Source: Phycisphaerae bacterium (GTDB lineage Bacteria > Planctomycetota > Phycisphaerae > UBA1845). From it: 64,000 bases of DNA. Of this stretch, positions 11,021 to 55,882 are shown piece by piece. The position numbers and the translations under genes were made by a program. Every line of letters starts with the position of its first letter. Positions within the stretch are counted from its first letter, which is position 1. The stretch spans positions 352,001 through 416,000 of the forward strand of contig CAXXGO010000006.1 of assembly GCA_963666835.2 (NCBI GenBank), read 5' to 3'. A model generated the notes under the pieces. That model had not been told where the DNA came from. It saw only the letters and a list, made by a program, of their open reading frames with translations, and made no database searches.

Positions 11021-11440
11021 GGAGACGTTTCGCCCGCTGCCGGTGGTGGTGTAGGCGATCAGGGGATTGCTCGTACCGCCGACCTCGGACATACCGGTCA
11101 TGCGGCCGATGGCGTCGGTCCAGGTCTGGCCGTCGCGCGTGTAGTCGAAGCTGAATCCGCGGGTGGAGGGATAGGTGATGCCGGTCAGGCGGTTCTGTTT
11201 GGGTTTCCCGGCGGACTGCTGATACCACTGCCAGCCGTAGGTGACGGTCTTGGCGAACAAAGGCGTCACATCCGGCCTCGGGTCGAGCGTCTCGTCGGTC
11301 AGATTAGCGAAGCCGTCGTAGCCGTAAGTGATCTCGCTGAGCGCCTCGCCGGGCGTGCTTGCCGAATACGCCGCAGCGGTCGAGATCTGCCCGCGCGGGG
11401 TGTAGTCGAATGCCAACACGCCGACCGTGGTGTCGAGGGC
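11021..11440 (-). pseudogene. Orphan RHS cassette 8, truncated by IS1380 (no toxin tip)
   Basis: ALDTTVGVLAFDYTPRG...YTTTGSGRNV nearly identical to the main RHS; breaks at the IS end. Confidence 0.9.
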
Positions 11441-11606
11441 TTACGCCGTTGGGAGCGAGACCTCAAGCCCGATGAGCAACACGGGCGAAGTTGATATGGT
11501 GTGCCTCGAATGTGACGCTAACCGGCCCAGCTCCTGTCGAAGCTGCTCAACCCAGAATGCATCGCAGCCGGTGAGGCCACGGGACGGAAGAAGCGGAGAA
11601 TCAGCC
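11436..11606 (-). repeat. Conserved inter-cassette element, copy A
   Basis: Plus strand agggcttacgccgttgggagcgagacc..gcccgatgagcaacacgggcga..gtgcctcgaatgtgacgcta; also at 17809, 20846 (diverged) and 27961. Confidence 0.9.
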
Positions 11607-11607
11607 T

Positions 11608-12003
11608 TCATTGCGACAACCTACTCGCTGCTGTCACTCGGACCTCCGCCCATTTGTCGTTCAGAAGAAACTCCAGGAGGCCTCGTGGGATCTTCGGATT
11701 GCAGGCGACCGCAAGTCGAACGGAATCGTCGGTGTCCCTCGCCAGTTGCTCTAACACGTGCGGGGGGGTCCTGCGTTTGCGCGCTATTGTATGTCGGACG
11801 TTTGCTGTCGGATCTCGTGCGAGGATTTCGATCACCTCGATCGGTACTGTCTTGTTATGAGCGACCCATTCCCGCATATCCGGATACTCTGCAATCACCT
11901 CTCTCCACACTTCTAGAGGAGCCTCCTCCGCCGCTGCCCTGCGATAATCTTCCATACATTCGCTGCTTCGTAGTCGGACAAACTCCTCAGCTGAGCCGAT
12001 CAT
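11608..12003 (-). CDS. Immunity protein for cassette 7 (HEAT/Leu-rich-variant helical repeats)
   Basis: Directly after the toxin stop with an AGGAG RBS; repeats LARD...VR..VA.N. Confidence 0.8.
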   Translation of the reverse strand: MIGSAEEFVRLRSSECMEDYRRAAAEEAPLEVWREVIAEYPDMREWVAHNKTVPIEVIEILARDPTANVRHTIARKRRTPPHVLEQLARDTDDSVRLAVACNPKIPRGLLEFLLNDKWAEVRVTAASRLSQ

Positions 12004-12013
12004 GGCATTCTCC

Positions 12014-12943
12014 TTAGTGGGTCTGACTCCAAGGGATGAACTGTCCCACAGGCCCCTTGTGCTTGCCGATTATGAAATCTCCGTACTTGTCCGCATCGGC
12101 GAAGTGCGCAAGCCCCCTTTCGGTTTCCTCGAAGACCTTCCATTCACTCTCCCCGTGTTTTGCCATATCTCTCGACCACCACAACTTTGTATCTGGATCC
12201 CGTTTGATCCGCTTGTTACGCCACATCACGGATTTGTCGAATCGCTCGACCTTCCAGAGACCCCGACTCTTGGCAGCGCGAGCGCACGTATTATCGTTGT
12301 GGCTCAACGCCTCAACATGCCCGACGTAGTAGCAATCATCGGTTTGGATGTCAAGGTTGTGAACTCGATGCACGCCTGGGTATTTGCGGACCGAGCGAAT
12401 CGTGGCGTTTCCGCCGATCGTCTTGAGTTTCTCGCCGATCCTCAGATCACCGGTTTGTACCCACGAATCGCGATCGACGGAGAACAAGCGGTGTCGCCTG
12501 GTCGGGTATAGCGGCTCGTCGTGACCATCGAATCGAAGCTCGTACACATAGCCGTTCAGATGAGAAACGGTGCCCAGCACGACGCGTCCGGGCGGGGGCT
12601 TGATGGCTGGGCAATCGGATACCGAGACAACCGTGGCCGGGCCTTTCAGGCCCATTTCCGGCAAACCGAATAGAATCGTTGCGCCTTCCGTGGCACGCAC
12701 TGACTCGATCCAGGCAAGCGGACGCAATACTTCGATGTCAATGATGTCCCCCTTCGATTCCGGGTTCGCCATCTTGAGCGCAACGTGCCGCCAAGTGCCT
12801 GGGGCCGGCTCGGGTTCGGAGGGCAGACTCTGGTCGGTCGTCAGAACTCGATCGCCCACGCGAAGCGACTCGATCGCGGTGCGGCCCTGCGGCGTGACGA
12901 CGAGGGTGCCCGCGAGGAAGCAGATGCATCCTTCGGCAATTGC
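12014..12943 (-). CDS. Orphan cassette 7: Hint domain plus predicted RNase tip (Ntox21/colicin E3-like)
   Basis: Open frame from CFLAGT to SHN, almost identical to the main-gene Hint. Tip LWWSRD..HGESEWKVF..ADADKYG..GKHK. No RHS core and no clear start at the 5' end. Confidence 0.75.
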   Translation of the reverse strand, partial: AIAEGCICFLAGTLVVTPQGRTAIESLRVGDRVLTTDQSLPSEPEPAPGTWRHVALKMANPESKGDIIDIEVLRPLAWIESVRATEGATILFGLPEMGLKGPATVVSVSDCPAIKPPPGRVVLGTVSHLNGYVYELRFDGHDEPLYPTRRHRLFSVDRDSWVQTGDLRIGEKLKTIGGNATIRSVRKYPGVHRVHNLDIQTDDCYYVGHVEALSHNDNTCARAAKSRGLWKVERFDKSVMWRNKRIKRDPDTKLWWSRDMAKHGESEWKVFEETERGLAHFADADKYGDFIIGKHKGPVGQFIPWSQTH

Positions 12944-13037: not shown

Positions 13038-13289
13038 TCAGGTGCGATCTCCCGTAAGTTGCCTCTCGGCAGCATCCAGTAGAGTCCGAAATGCGTCCAA
13101 CGGGATGCGCTTGGCGATACGCTCTCCATCGCCGGGGAGTTCCAGGAGGCACGAGCCCGAACGATGCTCGTCCGACAGAACAAACACTAGTGCATCACTC
13201 GTCTCAACGAATACAACGCATTCCTCATAGTCGACGGGCGAGGCGAGCAGAACTCTGCAATCATCGAACGTTATGTCTTTAGCTGTCAT
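13038..13289 (-). CDS. Putative immunity protein for cassette 6
   Basis: 83-aa acidic ORF starting 7 bp after the toxin stop. Confidence 0.75.
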   Translation of the reverse strand: MTAKDITFDDCRVLLASPVDYEECVVFVETSDALVFVLSDEHRSGSCLLELPGDGERIAKRIPLDAFRTLLDAAERQLTGDRT

Positions 13290-13296
13290 AGCATTC

Positions 13297-14265
13297 TCAA
13301 TTCAGAAAACAATAGAAAGACCCGTCCCCGTTGAAGCGAATACCGCGCCCGCTTGAATGGATGAAGTCCACGCGGCCCATATTGGCCATCCTGGACTGCG
13401 TACTCGGACTTGTGAGTATATCCATCACCTGGAGGGCTGCGTCGTTATTGTACTGTGACGCGGTTGTGGCTGCTGTTCTCCATTTGCTCCCTACACGATG
13501 TGCGTGTTTCTGCAAAGCTCGCCCAGCGAATGTAAAACCGTTGCGGTCCATCATCGTTGCCGCCTGATAGAGATCGTCCAACGCGCCAATGCTGCACCCA
13601 TTATGAACAAGCAGTGTTGCATCTGAGGCGAAGTATGTATGATCCCGATGGACTTCGATATTGTAGACAGGCTCCAGCCCCGGGCGCGGGTTGATCGATT
13701 CAACCGTTGCGGTCCCGTTGAGGGTTTGCAGCTTCTCGCCGTTTTTGAGATCGCGGGCCACCACCCAATCTTCACGATCCAGCGACCAGAACGGATGGGT
13801 GCCCGTGGCGGTAATAGGCCTTTCTTGCTCGGCGAGGTGGAGGTCCATGGTCTGGGCGTTGGTCGTTACGAACTTGCCGGTGACCGGACGGGCACCGGGG
13901 TGCGGCTCCGCCAAATCCGGACAGGGACCAATGCTCACCACGGCGGCGGGGCCGCGGATACCCATCTCCGGCATCGTCAAATCCACGGTTCCGCCTTCCT
14001 CTGCACCGGTGTGAGTGAGCCAAGGCAATGGACGGAGAAGCGAGATGTCCGTTACGCTTCCGTCGCGCCGATCCGCCCGCAGACGGATGAGCCGCCAGTC
14101 ATCCGCGATGATCTCGTCGTAGTCATCCGGAAACGGCGACGTAGCCGATTCCGCAGATACACAGGCGCCATGGTGCGGGACGTCACCATCCGATGTAAAC
14201 GAGACCGTGGCTCTTGGCGGAATAACTGCGAGCAACAAGCCCAGCATGATCGTCCTGGCAATCAT
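13297..14265 (-). CDS. Cassette 6b: hydrophobic leader, C-terminal part of a Hint domain and AGRALQKH-type toxin tip (predicted RNase)
   Basis: GGAGG RBS before ATG 14265. MIARTIMLGLLLAV leader, ATGTHPF (TxxH), VYNIEV..HTYF..LLVHN, and tip AGRALQKH...GRGIRFNGDGSFYCFL. Confidence 0.75.
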   Translation of the reverse strand: MIARTIMLGLLLAVIPPRATVSFTSDGDVPHHGACVSAESATSPFPDDYDEIIADDWRLIRLRADRRDGSVTDISLLRPLPWLTHTGAEEGGTVDLTMPEMGIRGPAAVVSIGPCPDLAEPHPGARPVTGKFVTTNAQTMDLHLAEQERPITATGTHPFWSLDREDWVVARDLKNGEKLQTLNGTATVESINPRPGLEPVYNIEVHRDHTYFASDATLLVHNGCSIGALDDLYQAATMMDRNGFTFAGRALQKHAHRVGSKWRTAATTASQYNNDAALQVMDILTSPSTQSRMANMGRVDFIHSSGRGIRFNGDGSFYCFLN

Positions 14266-14359
14266 GGAATTCCCTCCGGTGGTCAATGGTAACGACCGAG
14301 ATCGACGCGGCAAGCCTCTCCGCTTGGAGGAAATCTGCGCGCCACACGTACTACTCCTG

Positions 14360-15685
14360 CTACTCCTGAAGATCGTCATTGTACGCTCCTATTTCATTCC
14401 TGCCCCGGTGTTTGACCGACGGCTCGTCTGCAATTGCACTTGCGTTCTCTGCAACCTCCCGGTATTCCACGTCGCCTGTCGGCGTACTCACAATGTCTGC
14501 AACGAGCGGGGGGACCGTTGCGCCGTTGAGAGTCGGGTCGGGCTCGCAACGTACGTAATCCCCGAGGCTGACGTCCTCGATGGGTTTTTCAGAGCCATCG
14601 CCCATCAGCACGGTGGTCCCGGCCGCAAAGCAGATTGCCCCGGCCACGCCCCGAGTCACCTTCGCCAACTGCCGTCCCTTGCCCATCTTGATGCCTTTGC
14701 CAACGTAGCGAAACGCCGACTTGGCCAATTTTGCGAACGGTATCGCCGCCGTAATCGCCGTAGCACCGAAACTCGCTATGTCCCACGGCGACCAGTCCCC
14801 GGGGCTTTTGTCGAGGTTCTTGTATACCTCCCAGAGGTCAACGGCGATTCCCGCAGGTGTAAACGAGAGGGCCGCCAACGCGAACCCCTTGGTAACGTCT
14901 AGCCCTGTGTTGAGCACCTGAGTAGCCCAGGCGAAGCCTGCCATCCACTCTCCGGGCACCTGTTGTGCGAGCTCCCATGCATCAGGGCCCTCGTACGGCG
15001 TGTCCTCGAACAGACCCGCGGCGTCCCGGCGATTCACGGGGTTGCTGCCAAGGTACTGGTATAGGTTGGGGCCGTCGATGTGTTGGCCACCTGCCGACAC
15101 CACGGCACTGACATAGGCGTTCTGTGCGTTCGTCAACATAACGTCGAACAGCACTAGCGACGTCTGGTTCGGGTCCTCCTGCATGTATCGCCCGAGCTTC
15201 GGTTTGAGGATCCGGGTGCGGTTGTTGATCCCGTCGATCTCGGGCATGTGGTCGAGGCCTTGGTGGCCTTTGGTGGTGGCGATCAGACTGGGCGTGCCGA
15301 GGATGTCGGTGATCGTGCCGTCGGATTCGATCCGCTCGGCCGCGAGGCGTTCGCCGTAGGGTTTGTAGTTGTATTGCTGCTCGAGGTATCCCTCGTGATC
15401 GGTCGTGGCCACGACGTTGTAGTTCACATCCTGCAGAATGAAATGCGGATCGGTTGGTGTCTCGTCGCTGTCGTAATATGCCACGACCTCGTCAATGTAG
15501 TCGAGGCCGTAGACGTATTGGCGGTAGAGTGCCAGCGACGTGCCGTTGTGCTTGTGGTGCTCCAGCGGGCGGTGGCCGTCGTAGTAGAAGTAGTCCCCGT
15601 CGCCGGTGGTGTTAAGATCGCCCGAGCCGGACACGGTCTTGTGGATCATCCGCCCGAGGACGTCGTATTCGTACGTGGCGATGAG
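14360..15685 (-). CDS. Cassette 6a: RHS core C-terminal part, linker and N-terminal part of a Hint domain
   Basis: Similarity to the main RHS begins at LIATYEYDVLGR. NPVNRRDAAGL core end, then CFAAGTTVLMGDGSEKPIEDV, then stop. First ATG at 15649. Confidence 0.8.
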   Translation of the reverse strand, partial: LIATYEYDVLGRMIHKTVSGSGDLNTTGDGDYFYYDGHRPLEHHKHNGTSLALYRQYVYGLDYIDEVVAYYDSDETPTDPHFILQDVNYNVVATTDHEGYLEQQYNYKPYGERLAAERIESDGTITDILGTPSLIATTKGHQGLDHMPEIDGINNRTRILKPKLGRYMQEDPNQTSLVLFDVMLTNAQNAYVSAVVSAGGQHIDGPNLYQYLGSNPVNRRDAAGLFEDTPYEGPDAWELAQQVPGEWMAGFAWATQVLNTGLDVTKGFALAALSFTPAGIAVDLWEVYKNLDKSPGDWSPWDIASFGATAITAAIPFAKLAKSAFRYVGKGIKMGKGRQLAKVTRGVAGAICFAAGTTVLMGDGSEKPIEDVSLGDYVRCEPDPTLNGATVPPLVADIVSTPTGDVEYREVAENASAIADEPSVKHRGRNEIGAYNDDLQE

Positions 15686-15829: not shown

Positions 15830-16096
15830 CTAGCCAGCGTAGTACTTGCCCCGCATCGCCCTCGCGATCTCCAGGCGCAACTTTGCAATCAGCTCGGTCG
15901 TCGCGTCGGGTACAGCCAGTTGCTCAGCAGTGAGGGCATCCAAGTCGACGGCCAGATATGTGAGTATCTCACCCGATGTCGCTCCTCCGGCGATTGAATT
16001 GCTGAGGCGCTCACTCCAATCGGTATGCCCGTATTCCGTAAGCGCAGCGATCAGTCTGGCTGCCTCAGCATAAACATCGAAGTTTGATCTGGACAT
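15830..16096 (-). CDS. Putative immunity protein for cassette 5
   Basis: 88-aa helical ORF with a GGAG RBS immediately downstream of the toxin. Confidence 0.75.
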   Translation of the reverse strand: MSRSNFDVYAEAARLIAALTEYGHTDWSERLSNSIAGGATSGEILTYLAVDLDALTAEQLAVPDATTELIAKLRLEIARAMRGKYYAG

Positions 16097-16115: not shown

Positions 16116-17813
16116 TCAACTACCGGGAGCGCCTTGCCACGTTTGTATGTTGGTTACCCCGCCAGGTTCCACGACCACTTCAATTCCGCCGCCGGGATTT
16201 GCGCCGACTCGAGGGGCTGTCCGTGTAATGAACTGGGCGCCAGCCTTCAGCCGACCGCACAAGACGAAGTCCGGTTTCCCCATGTTTTCGGGCGGCACAC
16301 CGTACCTTGCAGAGTATCCTGGTGCCGCTGGATCTTCAAGCGCCCAATATGGCGAATCGCTTCCCCTGCTGATACCTCGCATTCCCGTACGATACAGCCG
16401 AGCGCCAGCAGCTACTCGTCCCCGCGCGTAAAGGGCGGCAGCCGATTGATCTTGCACCGCTGCTCCTTCCGGTGTTCGTACGACGAACCCGCTCCTGAGT
16501 CCCTGCCGGATGCCAATTGCGCCTCCTAACGTCATTACGCTTGAGAAACCGGCATCGACGAGTGCCATGGTCATTTCGAGTTCATCCATAGCGTCCAGAG
16601 CATTCTGACTTCGTTGATCCGCTTGATATAGCCCGTTTAGACCGAACGCAACGCCCATCGCGCCTCCAACCAGACTGGTGCCCGATGCGGTTGCAATCCC
16701 CATCGTCATATTGAGGATTGCACCGCCCCCATGGGCGCATGCCATGAACGCAAGGCCGGCAATACCACCTCTTCCTGCTGCTCCTACGATTTCGTAGAGC
16801 GAATCGGTCAGATCCTGGTGTGCCGCACGCCCCGACAGCGTTAACTCGATGCTCTTGTAGAGGGCACTCGCAGCGCCGCCCACTAGAGCACTCACCAAAT
16901 ACTGGATGACTTCTCCGCTCGGATCACTGAACACCATCGGGTTCGAGGCAAATGGCTGATACAAGCTCATTCCATCACCGTATTGAGCGCCTGCTGTTAG
17001 GGAGGCAAAGGCGGATATAACCTGTGCTTTGCTAGCTAGGGCGGTGTTGAGCAGCAACGCTGTTTCGTTCGGGTCGCGTTGGCGGAATCGGCCGAGGGAG
17101 GGCACGTAGTCTCTGGCGCGATTGTGCCAGGACGCCGTCTCCGTGTCGTACCAGAGGCCCTTGTAGCCGAGGGACAGGGCGATCTGTTCCGGCGTGGCGA
17201 GGATGTCGGTGATGGTGCCGTCCGATTCGATCTGCTCGGCCGCGAGGCGTTCGCCGTAGGGTTTGTAGTTGTATTGCTGCTCGAGGTGTCCCTCGTGATC
17301 GGTCGTGGCCACGACGTTGTAGTTCACATCCTGCAGGATGAAATGCGGGGCCGCTGCCGTCTGATCGCTATCGTAATATGCCACGACCTCGTCAATGTAA
17401 TCGAGGCCGTAGACGTATTGGCGGTAGAGTGCCAGCGACGTGCCGTTGTGCTTGTGGTGCTCCAGCAGGCGGTGGCCGTCGTAGTAGAAGTAGTCCCCGT
17501 CGCCGGTGGTGTTAAGATCGCCCGAGGCGGACACGGTCTTGTGGATCATCCGCCCGAGGACGTCGTATTCGTACGTGGCGATGAGATGGCCCAGGTCCGA
17601 ACCGGCCAGATCGCCCGCGGCGTCGACGTGGTAGTCGCCCTTGTCATGCACCTCGACCACGCGGTTCCACGCGTCGTATTTGTAGAACTTCTCGTCATCG
17701 AGCACGAGGTTCCCGGCCGCGTCGTAATAGAAGTCGTCATTTTCGACGGACCCGCCGTTGGCCTCGGTCCGGAGGGTGTTGATCCGGTTGGCCTCGTCGG
17801 TGGTGTCGAGGGC
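16116..17813 (-). CDS. Orphan RHS cassette 5: RHS core, Gly/Ala-rich hydrophobic linker and putative ADP-ribosyltransferase-fold tip
   Basis: NPMVFSDPSGE core end. Tip LYR...PYW...GGGIE. Frame opens directly after an in-frame TAA. Confidence 0.75.
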   Translation of the reverse strand, partial: ALDTTDEANRINTLRTEANGGSVENDDFYYDAAGNLVLDDEKFYKYDAWNRVVEVHDKGDYHVDAAGDLAGSDLGHLIATYEYDVLGRMIHKTVSASGDLNTTGDGDYFYYDGHRLLEHHKHNGTSLALYRQYVYGLDYIDEVVAYYDSDQTAAAPHFILQDVNYNVVATTDHEGHLEQQYNYKPYGERLAAEQIESDGTITDILATPEQIALSLGYKGLWYDTETASWHNRARDYVPSLGRFRQRDPNETALLLNTALASKAQVISAFASLTAGAQYGDGMSLYQPFASNPMVFSDPSGEVIQYLVSALVGGAASALYKSIELTLSGRAAHQDLTDSLYEIVGAAGRGGIAGLAFMACAHGGGAILNMTMGIATASGTSLVGGAMGVAFGLNGLYQADQRSQNALDAMDELEMTMALVDAGFSSVMTLGGAIGIRQGLRSGFVVRTPEGAAVQDQSAAALYARGRVAAGARLYRTGMRGISRGSDSPYWALEDPAAPGYSARYGVPPENMGKPDFVLCGRLKAGAQFITRTAPRVGANPGGGIEVVVEPGGVTNIQTWQGAPGS

Positions 17814-17945
17814 TTACGCCGTTGGAAGCGAGACCTGAAGCCCGATGAGCAACACGGGCGAGGTTGATATGATGTGCCTCGAATGTGACGCTAACCCCAA
17901 ACTGCCCGATCGAACAAGCAAAGAACTAGTGATGTCCCCGTTTTC
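17809..17945 (-). repeat. Conserved inter-cassette element, copy B
   Basis: About 85 bp nearly identical to copies A and D; also shares a GGRGACATCACT motif with copy D. Confidence 0.9.
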
Positions 17946-17960: not shown

Positions 17961-18323
17961 CTATCCCTGATTGCGGTCCAGCTCCCTGCCAAGGTTTGGA
18001 CCAACTAGGGCTTTCAATCGAGACGTAACTTCGCCATACTCAGCCAGGTTCTCCAGGAACGACACGCAGATCAACTCCTGCACGGCGTCGTCCCCGAACG
18101 CCATTGACCGCTCAAGGCAGTTGAGGATTCTTGCCACTTGAGGCGGAGACCCGTTTGCGTGGGAAAGCACTTCGCCAACAACATACCTCGTCACGTCTCC
18201 GAAGAAGACATGGGGCAGAAGCTCAGCGTAGTCGTCGAGGTGCGTTTGATACACACCGTCCAGCTCAGGCACTTGCTGCAGCAGGTTGTTCACGAGAACC
18301 ACGGTGGACTCAGGTATATTCAT
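17961..18323 (-). CDS. Putative immunity protein for cassette 4
   Basis: ATG one base after the toxin TGA; LLPHVFFGDV...VQELICVSFLENL. Confidence 0.8.
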   Translation of the reverse strand: MNIPESTVVLVNNLLQQVPELDGVYQTHLDDYAELLPHVFFGDVTRYVVGEVLSHANGSPPQVARILNCLERSMAFGDDAVQELICVSFLENLAEYGEVTSRLKALVGPNLGRELDRNQG

Positions 18324-18324
18324 A

Positions 18325-20850
18325 TCAGTTTCCCGCCAAGGCAGATCGAAGGTCATCCAGAATCCGTCGCGCAGCGATCTTGTCTCCCAAGGAGGCGTTT
18401 GGATTCCTTCTCAGCCATTTCTCGAGAGCTCGGGCGTACTCCTGGCCCTTCCGAGTATGCCATCTTCCGCCCACCTGCTGCCCTGTTCGTGTTTCGTATC
18501 GGATGGCGTCCGCGGTACTTCCTGTGCCGATCGGACTACTGGTTTTCGCACCTTTGTACAAGTCATCCACAATGTTCCGGAGCTTGGGATTAGTTACGGT
18601 GGGTCGGTTGACCCCTTTCCCCGCACGCACCCGAGCGGAACTGAACCTGACTCTGGCTCCAGCCGAGCTCACTCGTGTCGAACGGACGTATCGGGCGAAC
18701 TTGCCTCCGATTACGGTACCGGCGGATGTTATCGCGTTCGTCTCGGGCGCACAAGCGGTGGCGTAGGTCATCGCCCAGTACGCGGCCAGCTTGCCGTAGA
18801 GGCTTACGCGGTCCCGGCCCTTGATGGCGTCCTCGTACGCCACGAGAAGCGTATCCAGCGCGGTCTCCCGGTTGTAGAGCACGTCGCCGATCGCGTCGCC
18901 GTAGTCATCGTCGCCCCAATCGATGCTCCAGTGCCACAGTTGGCTTTCATCAGCGGATATCAAGGCCTTGGTGGTATCGTCCTTGGTGGTCGCCCAAGCC
19001 AGCCGGGACCATGGGGAGCCCGCGGGCGGCGCGAGTGTCCACCTGTTGGTCGCCGGGGGCGTGACGCCTCCGACGCCTCCTGCTCCCGGGAGCCCGCTGA
19101 ACCAGCATCCCGTCGGGTCGGTGCCCATGTGCGGTGCGCTGAGGATGTATTCGTACAAGCTCGGCCCGTCGCCGTATTGGCCCATGCCGTCAACGCTGAC
19201 ACCGGGAGCGACGGGGTACCCGCCCCAAGTGTTGCCACCGGTCAACATCAGGCCGGTTTCGTACGGATCCCGTTGCAGCCAGCGGCCGAGGATGGGGTCG
19301 TAGTAGCGGCCGGGGGTGAAGTAGAGGCCGGTTTCGGGGTCGAACCAGAGGCCTTGGTGGCCTTTCGAGAGTGCCAGGAAGGCGGTGTTGGCGGGCTCGT
19401 TTTCGTATCCGGCGCCGGTGCCATCCTCGATGGCGAGGTAGCCGCCGTAAGGCTGGTACGCGTATTGCTGCTCGAGGTATCCCTCGTGATCGGTCACGCC
19501 TACGACGTTGTAGTTCGCATCCTGCAAGATGAAATGCGGGTTGGTTGGTGTATCATCACTGTCGTAATATGCCACGACCTCGTCAATGTAGTCGAGGCCG
19601 TAGACGTATTGGCGGTAGAGTGCCAGCGACGTGCCGTCGTGCTTGTGGTGCTCCAGCACGCGGTGGCCGTCGTAGTAGAAGTAGTCCGTAGGCGACTCGG
19701 CCGTGCCGAGCGTCTTGGCGATCCGCCGGCCGAGGGCGTCGTATTCGTATTGGCCGATGAGACTGCCCAGGTCCGAACCGGCCAGAGCGCCCGCGGCGTC
19801 GACGTGGTAGTCACCCTTCTCATGCACCTCGACCACCCGGTTCCACGCGTCGTATTTGTAGAACTTCTCGTCATCGAGCACGAGGTTCCCGGCCGCGTCG
19901 TAGTAGAAGTCGTCGTTTTCGACGGGTTCGCCGTTGGCCTCGGTCCGGAGGGTGTTGATCCGGTTGGCCTCGTCGGTGGTGTCGTGTCGTTTCTCGATCC
20001 ACGTGTCGGTGCCGAAGTCGTAGCCGGGATCGTTACCAGCCAGCGAACCGACCGTATAGCTGATGAAGCTGTCGTTGCTACTGCCTCCGGACCAGTTACC
20101 CAGAACGTCCAGATTCCACGCCTGCCCGGTGCCGCCATCGGCGATCTTGCCCTCCAGAGCGTGCTCTCCGCATTCGGCGAAGACGAGCCGGTTAAGATTG
20201 TCGTAGCCGTAGATGTACGAGCGTTGCCAGTTGTAGCCTGAGATGTCTCCGGCCTGGACGATGAACGCAGAGGTGCGGTTCCCGTTGGCGTCGTGCTCGT
20301 ACTCGTACATGTGGAGCGGGGCGCCGGGGTTGTTACCGCTCGTGAAGGTCATTGCTGCGACGCGGCCGAAGCGGTCGAGGGCGTTGGGGGTCGTGTAGTC
20401 GAGGGTGACGTCGTTTCCTCCCCAGACCTTCTTGACGTTTCGCCCGCCGCCGGTGGTGGTGTAGGCGATCAGGGGATTGTTCGTACCGCCGACCTCGGAC
20501 ATGCCGGTCATGCGGCCGATGGCATTGGTCCAGGTCTGGCCGTCGCGCGTGTAGTCGAAGCTGAATCCGCGGCCGGAGGGGTAGGTGATGTCGGTCAGGC
20601 GGTTCTGTTTGGGTTTCCCGGCGGACTCCTGATACCACTGCCAGCCGTAGGTGACCGTCTTGGCGAACAAAGGCGTCACATCCGGCCTCGGGTCGAGCGT
20701 CTCGCTGTTCAGATTAGCGAAGCCGTCGTAGGCGTAAGTGATCTCGCTGAACGCCTCGGCGGGCGTGCTCGCTGAATACGCCGTAGCGGTCGAGATCTGC
20801 CCACGCGGAGTATAGTCGAACGCCAACACCCCGACCGTGGTGTCGAGGGC
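18325..20850 (-). CDS. Orphan RHS cassette 4: RHS core plus helical toxin tip (GSTADAIRYE..GG..H..KG), no Hint
   Basis: YD repeats near-identical to the main gene; PHMGTDPTG core end; distinct ~95-aa tip. Confidence 0.8.
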   Translation of the reverse strand, partial: ALDTTVGVLAFDYTPRGQISTATAYSASTPAEAFSEITYAYDGFANLNSETLDPRPDVTPLFAKTVTYGWQWYQESAGKPKQNRLTDITYPSGRGFSFDYTRDGQTWTNAIGRMTGMSEVGGTNNPLIAYTTTGGGRNVKKVWGGNDVTLDYTTPNALDRFGRVAAMTFTSGNNPGAPLHMYEYEHDANGNRTSAFIVQAGDISGYNWQRSYIYGYDNLNRLVFAECGEHALEGKIADGGTGQAWNLDVLGNWSGGSSNDSFISYTVGSLAGNDPGYDFGTDTWIEKRHDTTDEANRINTLRTEANGEPVENDDFYYDAAGNLVLDDEKFYKYDAWNRVVEVHEKGDYHVDAAGALAGSDLGSLIGQYEYDALGRRIAKTLGTAESPTDYFYYDGHRVLEHHKHDGTSLALYRQYVYGLDYIDEVVAYYDSDDTPTNPHFILQDANYNVVGVTDHEGYLEQQYAYQPYGGYLAIEDGTGAGYENEPANTAFLALSKGHQGLWFDPETGLYFTPGRYYDPILGRWLQRDPYETGLMLTGGNTWGGYPVAPGVSVDGMGQYGDGPSLYEYILSAPHMGTDPTGCWFSGLPGAGGVGGVTPPATNRWTLAPPAGSPWSRLAWATTKDDTTKALISADESQLWHWSIDWGDDDYGDAIGDVLYNRETALDTLLVAYEDAIKGRDRVSLYGKLAAYWAMTYATACAPETNAITSAGTVIGGKFARYVRSTRVSSAGARVRFSSARVRAGKGVNRPTVTNPKLRNIVDDLYKGAKTSSPIGTGSTADAIRYETRTGQQVGGRWHTRKGQEYARALEKWLRRNPNASLGDKIAARRILDDLRSALAGN

Positions 20851-21366: not shown

Positions 21367-21380
21367 GACTGGGCCTCCCT

Positions 21381-46938: not shown

Positions 46939-46952
46939 TCCGCCGGTCTCCG

Positions 46953-47881: not shown

Positions 47882-48327
47882 TAGTCCGGCTCCTGCTCAT
47901 CCCAACTCGTCACGTCGGCTTGAGCCCCGACGCCACCCTCCTGCCCATCGGCGCCGTAGCTGAGCAGGTCATACGGGCCGCGGGTGCCGGGGAAGATATA
48001 GACGTAGTCGTTTCCCCACGGGTCTTGCAGATCGTTGCTTATCATGCCGTTGGGATGCTGTGGCGTCTTGGCGCGCAGAGCTTCCAGCCCGTCGTCGTAT
48101 GACGGGTACCGGTCGTTCTCCATGAAGTACAGCTCCAGGGCGTTCTTTATCGTGGCCACTTCGCTTCGAGCCACGTTCTGCTTGGCAGTGACCAGGTAGT
48201 CCGAAACCGACAGCGTAACGGCCGTGGCCATCACACCCACGATCACCACCACGACCATAAGTTCCACGAGCGTGAAGCCCCGTTCCGCCAAGATCTCTAT
48301 CAGACGTTTCTTCATCTGTTCGTCCAC
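47881..48327 (-). CDS. gspG: Major pseudopilin G
   Basis: RG|FTLVELMVVVVI, ALELY..DRYP..GLEAL, DPWGNDYVY..PG and SYGADGQEGG motifs. Confidence 0.95.
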   Translation of the reverse strand: MDEQMKKRLIEILAERGFTLVELMVVVVIVGVMATAVTLSVSDYLVTAKQNVARSEVATIKNALELYFMENDRYPSYDDGLEALRAKTPQHPNGMISNDLQDPWGNDYVYIFPGTRGPYDLLSYGADGQEGGVGAQADVTSWDEQEPD

Positions 48328-48329: not shown

Positions 48330-49538
48330 CTATTGAATCGTCCGGGTCGCCTCGAGGATCGGCATCATCGTGGCGAAGACCACGTAACCCACTGCCGCGG
48401 ACATGACGACAATGAGTACCGGCTCCAGAATGGAGGTCGCCTTCTCAATCGCCAGGCGGACTTCCATCTCATACCCTTCCTTGAGTTGCGTCAGCATCTC
48501 CGTCAGTTCCCCCGTGTTCTGGCCGACATTCACGATGCGGGCCACAAGCGGCGGAAACACCCGCGATCCCTCGAGGGTGGGGGCGATGTCACTCCCGCGC
48601 TGGATGGCTTGCTCCATATCGCCGAGTTCATCCGCCAACAGAAGATGCCCCGTCGTGGACCGTACAAGGCGCAGAGCCTCCAGGAACGACACGCCGCTAC
48701 GAAGCAACAACGACATGCTCTGGGCGAACTGGGCGATTACGCCCTTGCGGATCAGCGTGCCGATTACCGGCGTACGCAACTGCCCCGCGTGATACCAGCG
48801 TTTACCCGTGGGCCAACGCAAGAACGCCGTTGCCAGGGCGATCAGCAACACTCCAGCCAGCGCCAGCGCCGCCCAATGCTGAGTAACGCAATCGCTGATC
48901 GACTTGAGCACCATGGTACTGGTGGGCAACGAGCTTCCCGAGGCCTCCAGCACCGAGAGCAACTGCGGGATCACGTACGACATCAGGAACAGCACGACCC
49001 CGCTCCCCACTACGGCCAGGACCATCGGGTACGCCAAAGCACTGAACACGCGCGTCTTGACACTCTCCCGCTCCCGAATGAACGTCGCCAGCTCCGCCAG
49101 GGATCGTTCCATGCTCCCGGCCGTCTGCCCGACCTCGACGGCACTGCAGAAGACGTTGTCGAACCATGATTCGTGCATGCGCAGAGCGTCGCCGAACGCA
49201 CTTCCGGAACGCACTCGATCACGCAGATCACGAAGGACCGGGGTCAGCTTCCCGCGGGACTGTTGGGCCAGGACCCCGATAGCTTCGGCCAGCGGCACCC
49301 CGGCGCGGAGCAGCATTGACAACTGCCGGGCGAACTCGGCCACGTGTTCCTGACGTTTGGCCTTGCGCGTTCGGCGGAGAGAGATCTTCTTCTCCTTGAA
49401 CGCTACGGCCTCGAACTCCAGAAGCCTCAGACCGTCCTGTCTGAGGGTCTGCCGCCCGGACGCCGGCGTATCGGCCGTCAGCACCCCGGAAGTCAGGGCT
49501 CCCCCTCGATCGCGGGCTTTGTATGCGAATACCGGCAA
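48330..49538 (-). CDS. gspF: Type II secretion inner-membrane platform protein F
   Basis: FARQLSMLLRAGVPL, ALAYP, GQNTGEL and LEP motifs. Confidence 0.95.
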   Translation of the reverse strand: MPVFAYKARDRGGALTSGVLTADTPASGRQTLRQDGLRLLEFEAVAFKEKKISLRRTRKAKRQEHVAEFARQLSMLLRAGVPLAEAIGVLAQQSRGKLTPVLRDLRDRVRSGSAFGDALRMHESWFDNVFCSAVEVGQTAGSMERSLAELATFIRERESVKTRVFSALAYPMVLAVVGSGVVLFLMSYVIPQLLSVLEASGSSLPTSTMVLKSISDCVTQHWAALALAGVLLIALATAFLRWPTGKRWYHAGQLRTPVIGTLIRKGVIAQFAQSMSLLLRSGVSFLEALRLVRSTTGHLLLADELGDMEQAIQRGSDIAPTLEGSRVFPPLVARIVNVGQNTGELTEMLTQLKEGYEMEVRLAIEKATSILEPVLIVVMSAAVGYVVFATMMPILEATRTIQ

Positions 49539-49582: not shown

Positions 49583-51412
49583 TCAGTCGCGCCCGGTTGG
49601 CCCGTAATACGTCGGCGCGAGAATCTCGTCCTCAACCGTCGCCACCACATCGCCGGGTTCGTCCTGGCAACTGGTTCGCGACAGTTCCTGGACGGTCGTC
49701 TGCCCGTTTAACAGCTTCACTACCGCCTGCTGACGAAGCGTGGTCATCCCCGCAGCCATCGCGCGCTGCTTAATGGCAGACGACTTGGCCCGCCCGATGA
49801 TCAACTCGCGGATCGTCTCATCGACCTCGAGCAGTTCGAATATCCCCTCTCTACCGGAGTAGCCCGTCCCCCCGCATGATTCACAACCGTTGCGGTGGGC
49901 GACGCTAGTCCCGGCCTTCTCTCGGGCGATGTTCAACATCAGCCGATCTTCCTCGGTCAGTGCTGCGCTGGTGCGGCACTCCGGGCAGACAACCCGCAGG
50001 AGACGCTGAGCGAGGACCGCGGCCAGACTGCTGGCAACTAGGAACGGCTCGATTCCCAAATCCAAGAGCCGCGTGACCGCCCCGGCCGCATCGTTGGTGT
50101 GCAGAGTGCTGAATACGAGATGGCCGGTCATGGAACTCTGGATGGCCATCCGGGCCGTCTCCTCGTCCCGAATCTCGCCGACCATGATGATGTCCGGATC
50201 CTGCCGAAGCACGGCCCGGAGTCCCGTAGCGAAGGTCATACCCTTCTTGGCCGAGACCTGGGTCTGACTGATCCCGGGAAGCTGATACTCGATCGGATCC
50301 TCCAGGGTGAGGATGTTCTTCTCCTGGCAGTCCAGGTGCTGCAGGGCGGCGTAGAGGGTGGTGGACTTGCCGGACCCGGTCGGGCCCGTCACCAGGATGA
50401 TCCCGTGTGTTCGATCGAGAAGCCGCTCCAATCTCAATCGCTCATCGTCCTCCATACCCAGCTCGGTCATGCTGTATAGCCGGGTGGATTTGTCCAATAG
50501 TCGAATGACCACACGCTCCCCGTGGCTGGTCGGTATGACGCTGATGCGGAGGTCCACTGACTTGTCACCCACTCGAACCGAGGTTCGACCGTCTTGGGCG
50601 ATGCGTTTCTCGGCGATGTCCATTCCCCCGAGGACCTTGATCCGGCTGGCGACCTCGTCCAGCAGGTGATCGGGGACTTCGAGAATGTCGTAGAGGACTC
50701 CGTCGATCCGGTACCGCACTTGCACCTTGCCGGCCAGCGGTTGAATGTGGACATCGCTTGCCCGGCGCTTCACCGCCTCGAACAGCATCATGTTGACCAG
50801 CCGGATCACCGGCGCCCGAGAGGCCGTGTCCAGCAAATCCTGATCGCCCAACACCTCAATGTCGTCCGCGGTCTGCGATACTCCCTCCACCCCGTCCAGG
50901 ACTTCGTCGAACTCGGTATCACAATCCGCGTACGCTTCGTCCATCGCCTTCCGCACGACCGCGCTGGGGGCCAACTCGAGCCGCACCGGTTTGCCAAGTA
51001 GCGCTCCGACGTGATCGATGACGCTCAGGTCCCCGGCGCCGGACGCTACGATCGGCATATGCGTGTCCTGCTGCCGCAGTCCCAGAAGCCCGTGCCGCCG
51101 AGCGTAGCTGATCGGGATGTTGCCGAGGAACTCCGGGTCGACGTCCTCCGCGCTGATCACAGTATGGATGGGCACACCCAACAGATCAGCCAGCGCTTCG
51201 TGGTACCGGGCCTCATCGATCAGGGCTTGGTCGTTGAGATCGTACAACACCTGGATCGGCGCGCAGCCGCGCCGTTCAGCCTTGTGCACCGCATCCGCAA
51301 CCGCCTCGTCGTGAACGCCCAGACGCGACAAGACGGCTCCTGTGACGCTCACTGGCGGCGCAGGCTCGGCCGGCGGCGGAGTGTTGGCGGCAGTCCCGTC
51401 TAGCGCATCCAT
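49583..51412 (-). CDS. gspE: Type II secretion ATPase E
   Basis: ASDVHIQP, Walker A GPTGSGKS, LRQDPDIIMVGEIRD, STLHTN and tetra-Cys Zn motif. Confidence 0.97.
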   Translation of the reverse strand: MDALDGTAANTPPPAEPAPPVSVTGAVLSRLGVHDEAVADAVHKAERRGCAPIQVLYDLNDQALIDEARYHEALADLLGVPIHTVISAEDVDPEFLGNIPISYARRHGLLGLRQQDTHMPIVASGAGDLSVIDHVGALLGKPVRLELAPSAVVRKAMDEAYADCDTEFDEVLDGVEGVSQTADDIEVLGDQDLLDTASRAPVIRLVNMMLFEAVKRRASDVHIQPLAGKVQVRYRIDGVLYDILEVPDHLLDEVASRIKVLGGMDIAEKRIAQDGRTSVRVGDKSVDLRISVIPTSHGERVVIRLLDKSTRLYSMTELGMEDDERLRLERLLDRTHGIILVTGPTGSGKSTTLYAALQHLDCQEKNILTLEDPIEYQLPGISQTQVSAKKGMTFATGLRAVLRQDPDIIMVGEIRDEETARMAIQSSMTGHLVFSTLHTNDAAGAVTRLLDLGIEPFLVASSLAAVLAQRLLRVVCPECRTSAALTEEDRLMLNIAREKAGTSVAHRNGCESCGGTGYSGREGIFELLEVDETIRELIIGRAKSSAIKQRAMAAGMTTLRQQAVVKLLNGQTTVQELSRTSCQDEPGDVVATVEDEILAPTYYGPTGRD

Positions 51413-53694
51413 AGGTATTCGCTTTCCGGGTAGTCACGGGCCTGCAGGGCGGCGCGATCCATCTCTCGCCGGGATATGAGCTTCAGATCAGCGAAGGCGT
51501 CGTCGCGCAGGACCGTCGGGCGGATGAACGCGTAAACCTTTGTCTTCGTGCGGAGACGGTCGCTGCTCTGGAACAGTGCGCCGATGACCGGGATCCGGCC
51601 GAGCAGAGGCACCTCTGTTACCGAATCGCTCTCCGCCTCGGTCACCAACCCGCCCACAATAACGGTGTAGGCGTCAGGAACCTCGATTGTCCCGGAGAAT
51701 GAGTTCGTGGTTCGAGGCGGCGGTACCCCCACGGACCCGCTACCCGTGAAGTTGCTGAAGCTCAACGAGTAGTCGAGGGTTATGTGGTCCCCTTGGGCTA
51801 TGTGGGGCGTTACGGTCATCGTGGTGCCGGCGGACTCGAACCCCGCAAAGGACGTGGTCGCTACGGTGTCGGAGGCGTTGATGCTGGTGAAGGGCGCTTC
51901 TTCGACGCTGCCGATCGTAGCCGAGGTACCGTCGCTGAGGAGGATCTTCGGGGTCGCCATGATCCGGCTGTTGCCGTGCGCAGCGATAGCGCGAACCAAC
52001 AGGGGGGTCTCGTGCGGGCCCAGGAGCACGCCGTTGAATCCTCCGCCGGGCTGGAAAGAGCGGACCCCGGTCTCTGCATCGATCCCGGACAACCCGAAGC
52101 TCGAGAAGACTATCGATTCATAGCTTCCCATCAGCTCTTCGTTGGCCAGCTCCACGGCCATGCTCAGAGAGTCGTTGAACGTCACCGCAATCAACGTCAT
52201 CTCGATCATCACCTGCTGCTGCCGACGGTCCAGCTCATCCATCAGAGTCTGCAAGCGAACGTGGAACTCGTTAGGTCCGATGGCGATGATCGCGTTGGTA
52301 TGCTCATCATGTGACAGCACGAAGTCCTCGCCCTCGATCCTCCGCGGAACCGATCCGGGTTCCACCGGGTTCGCCGACGCGGCCTCCTCGGGGGCGGCGG
52401 ATACACTGCTTGGCCCCTGGCTGTTCGCCGGTACCCGCTGACTGTCCACGTGAGCAGGTTCCGTCACTTGCGGATCCGCGTCTTGGGGCCCCGATTCCGA
52501 GATGCTCGGCAGAAGCTGAGACAGAATACCCACCAGATCCCGAGCCAGCCGGTTACGTGGGTGATAGAAACGAAGCGGACGCGAAGTCTCGACCCCCGCG
52601 ATATCCTCCGCCTCCATCAAACGGCCGATGCGCGTGTGCATCTTCGGGGCGGCCGTCACATACAGTCGATTCGTATCCGCATCCAGGAACAGCTTCAGAG
52701 TACTCTCCCCGGTCGGCTCCTCCACGAGGACGTTCTCGATCAACAACTGCAACCGGTCCGCGGATATGTGCCTGGGGGCATAAACCAGAGTCGGCCGCCG
52801 TTCCTCCGTCGGAACGTCGAACCGCTCGATCAAGCCGGTCACCTCGGCCACCGCCTCCGCCGGTCCGATGAGCAGTATCTCCGCGTCGGTCAGATTCGCG
52901 CGAATCGCCACGGGCGGCTCCTTCAAGCCGCCCAGCTTGGCCTTGTCGGTCAGCACCTGTTGGACCCGCTCGGCGACGGCCGACGCATCTTGATGTCGAA
53001 CGGGCACGGTCGTCACCTCGACCGGGATCGGCACGACGTCCAACAGCTCGATAATGTCAATAGCCCGAGCCACCGCGGACTCGTAGTCGGTGATGATCAC
53101 CAAATGCCGGTCCGGCATCTCGATAATCGAGGCCTTCGAGGAAGAGAGGAAACTCCGCACGTGCTTGAGCACGTTCTGCATGTTCTCGGAGTGGATCTCG
53201 ACAATCTGGGAGACCACCTGGCCGGAATCGGCCGACGGAGTCAGCCGCCCGGCGCGGATGTCCTGGACGTGCCTCTGCATATCGTCGGTGGGTACGATGC
53301 GCAGCCAGCCCTCGATGTCTCCCGGCACCAGGGCCAGGTCGTTCATTCGCAGCATGCTCCGCAGAAGATCGAGAAGGTGTGTACGCGAGATTGCCACCTC
53401 CGTCGGGCGGAACACTACGGAACGGCCGTTCAGTTGATCATCATAGATGATCTTGATCTTCAGCGTCTGGCTCACATAGTCGACGAATGCCGCCAGATCG
53501 ACCTTGTCCGGGTAACTTATCTTGATAGTCTCGCCGACGTCGAGACCCTTCTCTCCCGCCCACGACTGCATCGCCCGCGACTGCCGCGGCCGCTTCTGGG
53601 CCGAGGCATCATCCGTAGCGGCGAAGAGTATGACGGCTAGGGCCACTCCGCACGGTCCGATCAGCTTGGCCGTTTGCGATGTTCGCTGCTGCAT
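51400..53694 (-). CDS. gspD: Type II secretion secretin D
   Basis: Signal peptide, repeated N-domains (D..TN.L.V), QVMIEM, IVGGL..VPLLGRIPVIGALF and FIRPTV motifs. Confidence 0.95.
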   Translation of the reverse strand: MQQRTSQTAKLIGPCGVALAVILFAATDDASAQKRPRQSRAMQSWAGEKGLDVGETIKISYPDKVDLAAFVDYVSQTLKIKIIYDDQLNGRSVVFRPTEVAISRTHLLDLLRSMLRMNDLALVPGDIEGWLRIVPTDDMQRHVQDIRAGRLTPSADSGQVVSQIVEIHSENMQNVLKHVRSFLSSSKASIIEMPDRHLVIITDYESAVARAIDIIELLDVVPIPVEVTTVPVRHQDASAVAERVQQVLTDKAKLGGLKEPPVAIRANLTDAEILLIGPAEAVAEVTGLIERFDVPTEERRPTLVYAPRHISADRLQLLIENVLVEEPTGESTLKLFLDADTNRLYVTAAPKMHTRIGRLMEAEDIAGVETSRPLRFYHPRNRLARDLVGILSQLLPSISESGPQDADPQVTEPAHVDSQRVPANSQGPSSVSAAPEEAASANPVEPGSVPRRIEGEDFVLSHDEHTNAIIAIGPNEFHVRLQTLMDELDRRQQQVMIEMTLIAVTFNDSLSMAVELANEELMGSYESIVFSSFGLSGIDAETGVRSFQPGGGFNGVLLGPHETPLLVRAIAAHGNSRIMATPKILLSDGTSATIGSVEEAPFTSINASDTVATTSFAGFESAGTTMTVTPHIAQGDHITLDYSLSFSNFTGSGSVGVPPPRTTNSFSGTIEVPDAYTVIVGGLVTEAESDSVTEVPLLGRIPVIGALFQSSDRLRTKTKVYAFIRPTVLRDDAFADLKLISRREMDRAALQARDYPESEYLWMR

Positions 53695-54115
53695 GAGTGC
53701 CTCTTTCCGTCGTGGGAGGCGTTGTGCCCGACCGGCCGCACTCGACCCGCGGCGTCGCCCGAGCGACTGCGCATACCTGCTGCCGACCTCTTACCCTTCA
53801 CAAAGGGGTAATTGCACATTTGGTCCCAACGACAGACCAAGCCCGAACGAATGTCCACCGACGCTCATATCGGTGTAGGTGATAGCCCTCATGAGCTCAT
53901 CCGAATGTGGCGCAGACGTTGCGTCCGATAGCTGTGGGTATGATGCCGAAGTTGGCCTTCGGCGGCGGTGTATTGCGGGTATGACGCCCAAAACCGAAGT
54001 GATGGTCAACACGGCGTCCGTGCCGGACGATACAACTACTGTTCGATGGGTCGGGGACAATCAATCCCTACGAGAATCTCGGCGCAGAAGTTCTGTTATG
54101 GAAGGATGTCCGCGT

Positions 54116-54733
54116 ATGCAGCCGTTCCCGCAACGACTCGGTCGGTTAGCGGTCTTACTGGTGTTGCTCGGGGGCTGCGCGACCGGGCAGCGCGCCCGCT
54201 GGCTGCGGGACGCGGATAAGCCGCACCTGCGCACGCCGGTAGTGGCTCGCGAGCACAATGACCGCGGTCTGGAGGAACTGGAAAACGGGAACCTCGACGC
54301 GGCCCGAGAACAATTCCAGGAAGCGATTCTGTGCGATATGTACTACGCCCCGGCCCACAACAACTTGGGCTTGGTCCTACTCCAGCAGAACCAGCCCTAT
54401 GACGCGGCCTGGGAGTTCCAAAGTGCCATTCGGCTGAGCCCCCACGCCGCAGAGCCGCGGGCCAATCTCGGCCTGCTATACGAAGAGATCGGCCGAGTGG
54501 ACCACGCCATCACCAAGTACAAGACGGCTTTGGAATACGATCCGGAGAACGCCGCAGTCATGCGCCACCTGGCGCGGGCTTACGTCAAGGCCGGCAAAAA
54601 GGACGATAGCTTGAAGTCCGTCCTGGAGACGCTCCTCGGCGTCCCCGACGACGGCCCGTGGGACTACTGGGTGCGTGGGCAACTGATCCGCGTCGGCCGG
54701 GAGGAAGGTCCGACGCAACTGTTCGAGGAATGA
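54116..54733 (+). CDS. TPR lipoprotein (PilF/PilW pilotin-like)
   Basis: Lipobox LLGGC; TPR repeats AHNNLG and RANLG; divergent from gspD. Confidence 0.75.
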   Translation: MQPFPQRLGRLAVLLVLLGGCATGQRARWLRDADKPHLRTPVVAREHNDRGLEELENGNLDAAREQFQEAILCDMYYAPAHNNLGLVLLQQNQPYDAAWEFQSAIRLSPHAAEPRANLGLLYEEIGRVDHAITKYKTALEYDPENAAVMRHLARAYVKAGKKDDSLKSVLETLLGVPDDGPWDYWVRGQLIRVGREEGPTQLFEE

Positions 54734-55018
54734 TCGCTGTTTATCCCTCCTAACAAAGGGGGGAGAAGGGGTTCCCGTCAGGCATGGTTGCCCTGAGAGA
54801 ACTCTGAGACTCGTAAGATCGGAAACGCGGGTCGGGACTAGCGAAGCCGGAATAACCGATCAGGGATTGCACAGCCGGAAACCGCAACTTTGAAGAAGGG
54901 GACTTGGCTTACGCCGACGCGCATTCAGGTGAACATGAGACCCCTTCGGCGAGGTGCGTGTGCCTATGTTCAACGAGGGCCGGATTCGGCAACGAGACCG
55001 TACAAGAGGAGAAGCGTA

Positions 55019-55882
55019 ATGATCGTTCGAACTGCGTTTGTCACGGTGACCGTGTTTCTGCTCTGCGGTCTCGGATGCGGGGTCGTTACCGTTCCGAATG
55101 ATGCAACTCCACCAGTTGACCAGAATACCGCAGATGGAGCTGACACCGTTTCCGACGATGACACGTCACTGACGGTTGCGCAGAATACGGCCGTCGGCAA
55201 CATCATCGCCGCCACCGAGGCGGTGGCCAAGATCGTTGCCGTGGTTGCCCCGGTCAAAGATGTCGAGGATTCGCTCGCAGGCGGCGCGGACTTTGTAGCG
55301 TGCCCGGCCATGGACGTTGCCTTAGAGACCGATGTCCTCGATCTGGACCTCGCCTACGCCGCGGGCTGCGGCACGAGCCATCACCCGGACGTCTCAGTCG
55401 ACGGAACCGTCAGCGGCGAACTCTACTACGCCGTCGACGCGGTGGAGCTCGAGTTCACCGACCTGAACATCGATGGCGACGTGCTTACCGGCCGAGTCGC
55501 CGGCGGGTTCGGAGCATCCGCCGCCGAGGCCACCTTTGCCGTGAATGTGAACGTTGCCCTCGGCGACGTGACCATCACCGGCGGGGCAACGGTGATCGTC
55601 GACGAGCAGACCGGCGCGATGTCCGTGCGAGACGCCACTCTTACGGTTTCGGCTCCGGACTGCGACGACGTCACGGCCGTCCTGGCAAACGTGGTCATAG
55701 ACCCGAACGCCAACGCCAACTTCGCCCCGGAATCAGGATCCCTGACCTTCGATCTCTGGGACGAATCTACTCAGACAACGGTACAACTCGTAGTCGACTG
55801 CACCGCCGACACCCCCACAACCGGCACGGCCAAAGTAGCCGTGGAAGGCGCGGATCCGACGACGTATGTCCCGGCAGATTGA
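55019..55882 (+). CDS. Acidic beta-rich putative lipoprotein
   Basis: GAGGAG RBS; MIVRTAFVTVTVFLLCGLGC lipobox-like leader. Confidence 0.7.
   Translation: MIVRTAFVTVTVFLLCGLGCGVVTVPNDATPPVDQNTADGADTVSDDDTSLTVAQNTAVGNIIAATEAVAKIVAVVAPVKDVEDSLAGGADFVACPAMDVALETDVLDLDLAYAAGCGTSHHPDVSVDGTVSGELYYAVDAVELEFTDLNIDGDVLTGRVAGGFGASAAEATFAVNVNVALGDVTITGGATVIVDEQTGAMSVRDATLTVSAPDCDDVTAVLANVVIDPNANANFAPESGSLTFDLWDESTQTTVQLVVDCTADTPTTGTAKVAVEGADPTTYVPAD

Follow-up and report, generated by a model that had tools for sequence, protein, structure and literature searches.

By what route would a giant RHS toxin leave a cell whose genome encodes a complete type II secretion system (T2SS) on the same island? The question is raised by a stretch of 64,000 nucleotides (nt) from a Phycisphaerae bacterium (genome G000, contig C6, positions 352001–416000), referred to here as the window. 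A 47-kb island in the window carries a gsp operon, a gene for a VWA protein, a gene for an RHS toxin of 3514 amino acids (aa), its Imm52 gene and seven orphan RHS cassettes. All of these had been listed in the original prediction, made from the letters of this DNA, and all were recovered in place by profile matches and open reading frames. We put at roughly 65% the probability that the RHS toxin, probably along with its VWA partner, is exported by this accessory T2SS, which would be inherited jointly with its large cargo. The RHS/T2SS pairing recurs in dozens of related genomes, thus the machine probably exports the toxin.

The operon reads gspD-E-F-G-H-I-J-K-C-L-M on the minus strand from 53694 to 43118, and its genes abut or are separated by gaps of 44 nt or less. 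Two lipoprotein genes run divergently from gspD.

51400–53694, minus strand: gspD secretin (Pfam match)
49583–51412, minus strand: gspE (Pfam match), with a Walker A motif and two CxxC motifs
48330–49538, minus strand: gspF (Pfam match)
46306–48327, minus strand: pseudopilin genes gspJ, gspI, gspH and gspG, with gspG over the TIGR01710 cut-off
45597–46319, minus strand: gspK (family profile), pilin Glu5 absent
45076–45597, minus strand: gspC (family profile)
43656–45044, minus strand: gspL (Pfam T2SSL)
43118–43663, minus strand: gspM (NF040576)
53879–54733, plus strand: TPR lipoprotein and probable pilotin, whose true start is likely to be near 54113 (best NCBIfam match PilW, E = 3e-17)
54890–55882, plus strand: second lipoprotein, a conserved neighbour of the TPR gene at the most closely related loci (neighbourhood comparison)

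Pfam matches are found for gspD, E, F, G and L; gspH, I, J and M give NCBIfam or Pfam matches under the cut-offs, and GspG is the sole gsp protein over its equivalog cut-off. GspK and GspC give no match singly; their family profiles match solved GspK (3ci0, E = 0.008) and GspC (2lnv, E = 0.001), and 12 of 22 members of the GspC family match Pfam T2SSC. For D, E, F and G the T2SS models outscore those of the type IV pilus, e.g. GspE with 620 bits vs 508 for PilB and GspF with 325 vs 258 for PilC. PilB, PilC and PilQ all score under the T2SS models, and no gene for PilT or another retraction ATPase is found in the operon. A T2SS is recognized by gspC-M genes that lie together and score best against T2SS profiles, not against those of type IV pilus or Tad systems (PMC4793230). 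With eleven abutting genes, K and C being recognized through family profiles, the operon is by its sequence a T2SS. The closest named relatives of its GspD are from Phycisphaerae genomes, and no close GspD is found in a plasmid collection (best identity 24–28%).

The locus had been called self-contained, which is too strong, as the only prepilin peptidase found in the genome is on contig C1 at 1505535, none is in the island, and Sec is needed as well. Prepilin peptidases are interchangeable between systems (PMC4793230). The TPR lipoprotein displays an invariant lipobox Cys in 38/38 homologues. Its predicted complex with GspD aa 455–764 scores 0.51, vs 0.00 for the best control; between runs, at least 74% of the contacts agree, and the partner predicted local distance difference test (pLDDT) value is at least 75. 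The mark used is reached by 116 of 157 solved pairs and by 2 of 215 mismatched pairs. The predicted complex hints weakly at a pilotin role, because scores of 0.60 or less include only 18 solved pairs yet both mismatches. For the second lipoprotein the ESM Atlas yields unnamed clusters only.

The proposed cargo and its neighbours follow directly.

28923–39467, minus strand: RHS toxin, 3514 aa (386 kDa), with Hint and Tox-REase-5 profiles
28200–28910, minus strand: Imm52, cognate immunity to REase-5 (Pfam, E = 1e-26)
39642–42680, minus strand: VWA (DxSxS motif) and TSP3 protein, 1012 aa, signal-bearing, 5% Cys, a conserved partner of the RHS subtype found in the window

The RHS sequence consists of a signal-like segment (aa 1–32), a Cys- and Asp-rich head, a YD shell, core motifs, a hydrophobic linker, Hint (C3173–N3381) and Tox-REase-5 (aa 3407–3486). 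Autoprotease-type motifs are present at D2995 and D3045 (DPxG). The core is over the TIGR03696 cut-off and its profile matches solved Rhs proteins (E = 7e-25); the whole protein gives no PDB match by phmmer. Positions 1–2150 hold 40 Cys. At the signal-peptide-like start that had been noticed, all 11 subtype members found show a variable leader of basic, hydrophobic and small residues and, behind it, a mature N-terminus that is highly conserved. A hydrophobic N-terminal stretch is also present in 22 of 24 gsp-linked RHS heads. These heads look like Sec signal peptides. The ESM Atlas gives no usable match to the head, and an AlphaFold model of aa 33–500, built from 16 sequences, has a mean pLDDT of 41.5, too poor to speak for or against a cryptic PAAR-type fold. 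RHS homologues carry differing tips, and REase-5/Imm52 is a listed toxin-immunity pair (PMC3482391). With YD repeats and a DPxG core, a variable C-terminal toxin, an immunity gene and cassettes, the locus is, as read from its sequence, one of a polymorphic toxin.

The RHS start, the VWA gene, gspM and gspL are bridged by a contig from a second study (window 38713–44570). Misassembly of this junction is ruled out because that contig spans it. A promoter and terminator scan of 39400–43200 stays at chance level.

Is the pairing more than a feature of one island? A complete lack of RHS genes beside close homologues of the T2SS had been named beforehand as a refuting outcome; close GspD homologues are in fact repeatedly found beside giant RHS genes. 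In the class of the host, the accessory GspD family is present in 97 of 401 genomes, and at least 37 of its 116 loci adjoin a giant RHS gene. A class-wide profile search shows an RHS core within 25 kb at 32 of 116 non-self loci. When 60 of the 84 linkage-negative loci were retrieved (those left out being mostly the lowest scorers), an RHS head was present beside the operon in 5 (2 by Pfam, 3 by blastp to a linked RHS) and mini-RHS genes inside the operon in 2. Phylum-wide the family is found in 34 of 401 genomes, and outside the class a giant RHS core lies no more than 25 kb away at 6 of 22 loci, judged by coordinates alone.

Among 40 relatives the family is found at 11 loci. At six of these the contig also holds a giant RHS; one has a mini-RHS directly after gspD, three lie on contigs that are too short, and one runs onto a second contig with gspK-L, VWA and then a 3279-aa RHS. 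As a control in the same 40 relatives, only 2 of the 136 non-family secretin matches listed are within 25 kb of an RHS match, with 57 more secretin matches outside the list and a single-protein RHS query that is less sensitive than the class-wide profile. Both of these RHS matches are orphan cassettes only, beyond unrelated genes. Chance co-location of the GspD family and RHS is rejected because other secretins are so seldom near RHS.

In a FastTree of 96 secretins, from which one split gspD was left out, the family stands apart (support 0.999) from four of the five other secretins included; the fifth is on a long branch just outside the node. In the half that contains the GspD of the window (0.923), 22 of 32 tips are RHS-linked, 9 are on contigs that are too short and 1 has other cargo, the tips being selected so that these proportions are not rates. 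Conversely, gspL and VWA lie upstream at 7 of 9 loci of the same RHS subtype; of the remaining two, one is on a contig that is too short and the other has none. The linkage is kept despite rearrangement and is found in co-oriented loci, in divergent loci, and at three loci as mini-RHS genes in or after the operon. Many divergent-type loci have no large partner: RHS and gspD are separated there only by the TPR gene with a gene of 260 aa, or by one short gene.

Several further observations are recorded in their own right. The mini-RHS genes encode proteins of 166–261 aa in which a signal-like leader runs straight into the final RHS core motif, with a variable tip behind it; those in or right after gsp operons are L054:2201–2803 and 4937–5437, L098:5807–6592 and L048:5657–6430. 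The position of VWA upstream of RHS is filled elsewhere by two unannotated signal-bearing families of 600–1100 aa (L116, L117, L118, L127 and L090; L123, L124 and L130). Giant secretin-like proteins (P0033–P0176) of 3200–5500 aa display 17–30 matched stretches, and in relatives G025, G027, G029 and G035 secretin matches are situated in open frames of 4100–5000 aa.

A number of findings weigh against export of the RHS toxin by this T2SS. The main difficulty is the size of the cargo, 386 kDa vs 88 kDa for assembled cholera toxin, an example of a folded T2SS substrate (PMC9251779). The linkage counts are not independent because the genomes are related. At 20 retrieved family loci (among L060–L086) a module of TonB-dependent receptor, ExbB, TonB and TPR genes immediately precedes the T2SS, and these loci form one nested subclade (support 0.998). 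Several other family loci adjoin large enzymes (rhamnosidase; PKD, fn3 and CBM96 proteins). An RHS core is still present in 33 of 60 class genomes that lack the GspD family; RHS frames of 1500 aa or more are found in 12 of these 60 vs 33 of 93 family-positive genomes, and none of 16 giant-RHS loci from the family-negative genomes shows gsp genes (six of the stretches being shorter than 13 kb). A second VWA-RHS island of the same genome, on contig C5 (28951–72094), also has no gsp genes. It carries a tRNA-Arg, an integrase-like gene, a 1335-aa VWA protein and a 3263-aa RHS (about 53% identical). Thus the machine had been described too strictly as private. Taken together, these findings describe an accessory T2SS with an exchangeable cargo slot, mostly giant RHS in the part of the tree that holds the window.

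Around the VWA start the second island and the window share 276 nt at 92% identity, which suggests common control and service of the second island in trans. A remnant resembling an insertion sequence (IS) is found just upstream of the VWA gene of the second island, and further RHS cassettes are found at 127–136 kb of contig C5.

The accessory T2SS might instead serve the VWA protein or other partners, with the RHS toxin leaving through a housekeeping T2SS or in vesicles and the genes simply gathering on islands of secreted proteins. This would fit the common occurrence of RHS without gsp, the four further secretins that the genome holds besides the island GspD, and the exchangeable slot, e.g. 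in G224, where of two near-identical secretins one is situated by RHS and the other by a rhamnosidase. However, it fits poorly with the many divergent-type loci that have no large partner, with the scarcity of RHS near other secretins (2 of 136 listed) and with mini-RHS genes inside the operon, and it appears unlikely.

Somewhat less likely again is that the apparatus acts by contact, as a pilus-like structure that presents RHS and VWA at the cell surface or on the end of a filament, with no release. Such display would suit a very large cargo; adhesins of pili are known to contain VWA domains, and the TPR lipoprotein is similar to PilW, a pilotin of type IV pili. The best profile matches are nevertheless to T2SS with GspG over its cut-off, GspC, K, L and M are present, and the operon carries no gene for a retraction ATPase. 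Delivery by a type VI secretion system (T6SS) encoded elsewhere is very improbable, for although TssC, VgrG and PAAR genes lie at 2.117–2.131 Mb of contig C6 and most of the solved RHS cores closest to this one belong to T6SS effectors, the signal-like N-terminus in all 11 subtype members found, the 40 Cys and the lack of a PAAR motif or family in the toxin (motif and profile scans) or of a recognized adaptor gene nearby all argue against it. The T6SS cluster (C6:2117224–2131545) is 1.7 Mb from the island; the absence of PAAR and VgrG claimed earlier thus stands for the toxin and its surroundings but not for the genome. A search for TpsB gives no match, but its control likewise matched nowhere.

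Export of the RHS toxin by the accessory T2SS would be one step of a longer route, to which the orphan cassettes may contribute. The seven cassettes, all confirmed in the island, show 69–92% identity to the C-terminal part of the RHS toxin.

24831–27944, minus strand: cassette 1, RHS core, Hint and Ntox50-like tip (weak, E = 0.003)
24523–24843, minus strand: 106-aa probable immunity gene of cassette 1 (role from position)
21859–24405, minus strand: cassette 2, RHS core and GIY-YIG-like tip (weak; T5orf172, E = 0.06)
20956–21857, minus strand: immunity-type genes DUF4259 (20956–21366) and Imm26 (21381–21857), by profile matches
18325–20829, minus strand: cassette 3, RHS core and tip without assigned family
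17961–18356, minus strand: DUF7674 protein, probable immunity gene of cassette 3
16116–17705, minus strand: cassette 4, RHS core (TIGR03696) and tip without assigned family
15830–16096, minus strand: 88-aa probable immunity gene of cassette 4 (role from position)
13297–15649, minus strand: cassette 5, RHS core, Hint and tip, with a frameshift in Hint (open reading frames 14360–15649 and 13297–14379)
13038–13289, minus strand: 83-aa probable immunity gene of cassette 5 (role from position)
12014–12859, minus strand: cassette 6, Hint and tip without Pfam match, 91% identical to RHS aa 3167–3395
11608–12003, minus strand: LRV/HEAT-repeat protein, probable immunity gene of cassette 6 (Pfam LRV; role from position)
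11006–11419, minus strand: cassette 7, RHS core fragment, toxin tip absent, 92% identical to RHS aa 2462–2600
10012–10989, plus strand: IS1380-family transposase remnant at the left island end that cuts cassette 7 (NCBIfam NF033539, E = 1e-39, below cut-off)

Four cassettes start at one common 13-nt junction. Their identity to the toxin and this junction are as expected if tips are exchanged by recombination. An 85-nt element precedes cassettes 7, 4 and 1 (11437–11523, 17810–17896 and 27962–28048; 94–95% identical) and is found at these three places only in the genome; the 13-nt joining sequence is also present in the main RHS gene. The element was considered as an integron site; its predicted folding is weak, and the tail of a copied open reading frame is the better reading.

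The sequence displays a full gspC-M set, signal-like RHS and VWA starts, an RHS shell with autoprotease motifs, Hint, a nuclease tip and cytoplasmic-type immunity genes. A likely course, held with about the same confidence as export itself, is that Sec would bring RHS and VWA to the periplasm, where their Cys-rich heads would fold. The TPR lipoprotein would pilot GspD, the chromosomal prepilin peptidase would mature the pseudopilins, and the T2SS would push the cargo outside the cell. Cleavage at DPxG and Hint would then release REase-5 to cut DNA in non-immune relatives, killing them, and recombination with orphan cassettes would exchange the tip. On a wider scale we propose, tentatively and at somewhat less than even odds, that this Planctomycetota T2SS lineage arose as a dedicated exporter of giant RHS shells (200–390 kDa) and co-secreted partners, may also act in trans for RHS islands to which it is not linked and for mini-RHS proteins with signal peptides, and was subsequently adopted for TonB modules and enzymes.

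The island itself is bounded by a tRNA gene at one end and a repeat of its 3′ part at the other, in agreement with the tRNA-bounded island described earlier.

9175–9248, plus strand: tRNA-Asp(GTC), left att site (ARAGORN; repeat match)
56562–56609, plus strand: right att site, a 48-nt copy of tRNA-Asp 9204–9251 with one mismatch

With its att repeats the gene block appears to be a mobile DNA island, and no integrase is recognized among its open reading frames. The genes had been described as co-oriented, which applies to gsp, VWA, RHS and the cassettes but not to the lipoprotein genes (53879–55882), situated on the opposite strand. Remnants at the island ends (9250–9800 and 56231–56400) show no family match in profile scans; they resemble genes of type I restriction systems and of the small subunit of a terminase. 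The terminase-like remnant at 56231–56400 has two 66% copies elsewhere in the genome. Outside the island, 1977–3745 consists of imperfect repeats with no credible gene, in which one translated motif recurs several times. Signal-bearing proteins without a Pfam family are encoded at 339–1772, 57011–57859 and 58909–61704, the first with a C-terminal tail that is presumably IPTL-CTERM-like.

How does the locus compare with known systems? Bcn-A of Xanthomonas perforans, a 1398-aa Rhs, is likewise an antibacterial toxin with an immunity gene, and its activity depends on a T2SS, being lost in an xpsD mutant; however, it uses the general Xps system and is described from a five-gene locus without a gsp operon (PMC7259588). 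For Xanthomonas XRhs F VIII and Ralstonia RRhs F II, T2SS use is likewise predicted from the neighbourhood, but the main text gives gspG within 5 kb upstream and not a full gspC-M set with its own secretin (bioRxiv 10.1101/2025.05.08.652813). The 'T2SS/Sec' polymorphic toxin class shares signal peptide, RHS, Hint, REase-5, Imm52 and cassettes with the island, but the signal peptide is its sole criterion, its Table 1 lists no neighbourhood genes, and it is contrasted with 'dedicated' systems (PMC3482391). Hxc and Txc of Pseudomonas aeruginosa are extra T2SSs with specific substrates, one in a region of genome plasticity, but these substrates are alkaline phosphatase and chitin-binding protein, not polymorphic toxins (PMC6567927). 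Bacterial teneurin-like proteins are also giant YD-shell toxins with Sec signals and polymorphic tips, but mostly lipoprotein- or wall-anchored; the main text does not mention T2SS, and its authors see no obvious delivery machinery (PMC13018210). In the related phylum Omnitrophota a T2SS-like locus is kept upstream of giant genes, whose products are described in terms of adhesion and degradation and not as toxin-immunity arrays (bioRxiv 10.1101/2023.11.21.568195). The T2SS of Serratia marcescens contributes to killing of other bacteria, but the abstract names neither an RHS substrate nor a linked toxin array (PMC13729183).

A literature search that covered few subscription journals found no complete accessory gsp operon with giant RHS and cassettes, and none in Planctomycetota; one text that holds both 'Phycisphaerae' and 'Rhs' treats RHS merely as a plasmid protein family (bioRxiv 10.1101/2024.01.22.576637). 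The original prediction knew of no described example; T2SS-linked Rhs toxins are in fact published, but a complete accessory T2SS operon travelling with giant RHS cargo across Planctomycetota is recurrent and apparently undescribed.

For the outer-membrane crossing of signal-peptide RHS toxins, the GspD-family loci thus name a candidate machine. A single deletion would suffice to test the question, since the secretin of the accessory system differs from the housekeeping secretins. The loci would represent a widespread antagonism system in Planctomycetota, a phylum with none found described in the literature searched. If the more tentative proposal of a dedicated RHS-exporting lineage is true, that lineage would be a distinct class of interbacterial weapon, with cargo far above the cited T2SS examples. 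If export by the accessory T2SS is true, a dedicated T2SS would join the routes used by polymorphic toxins, and the RHS toxin would test the limit of T2SS cargo size.

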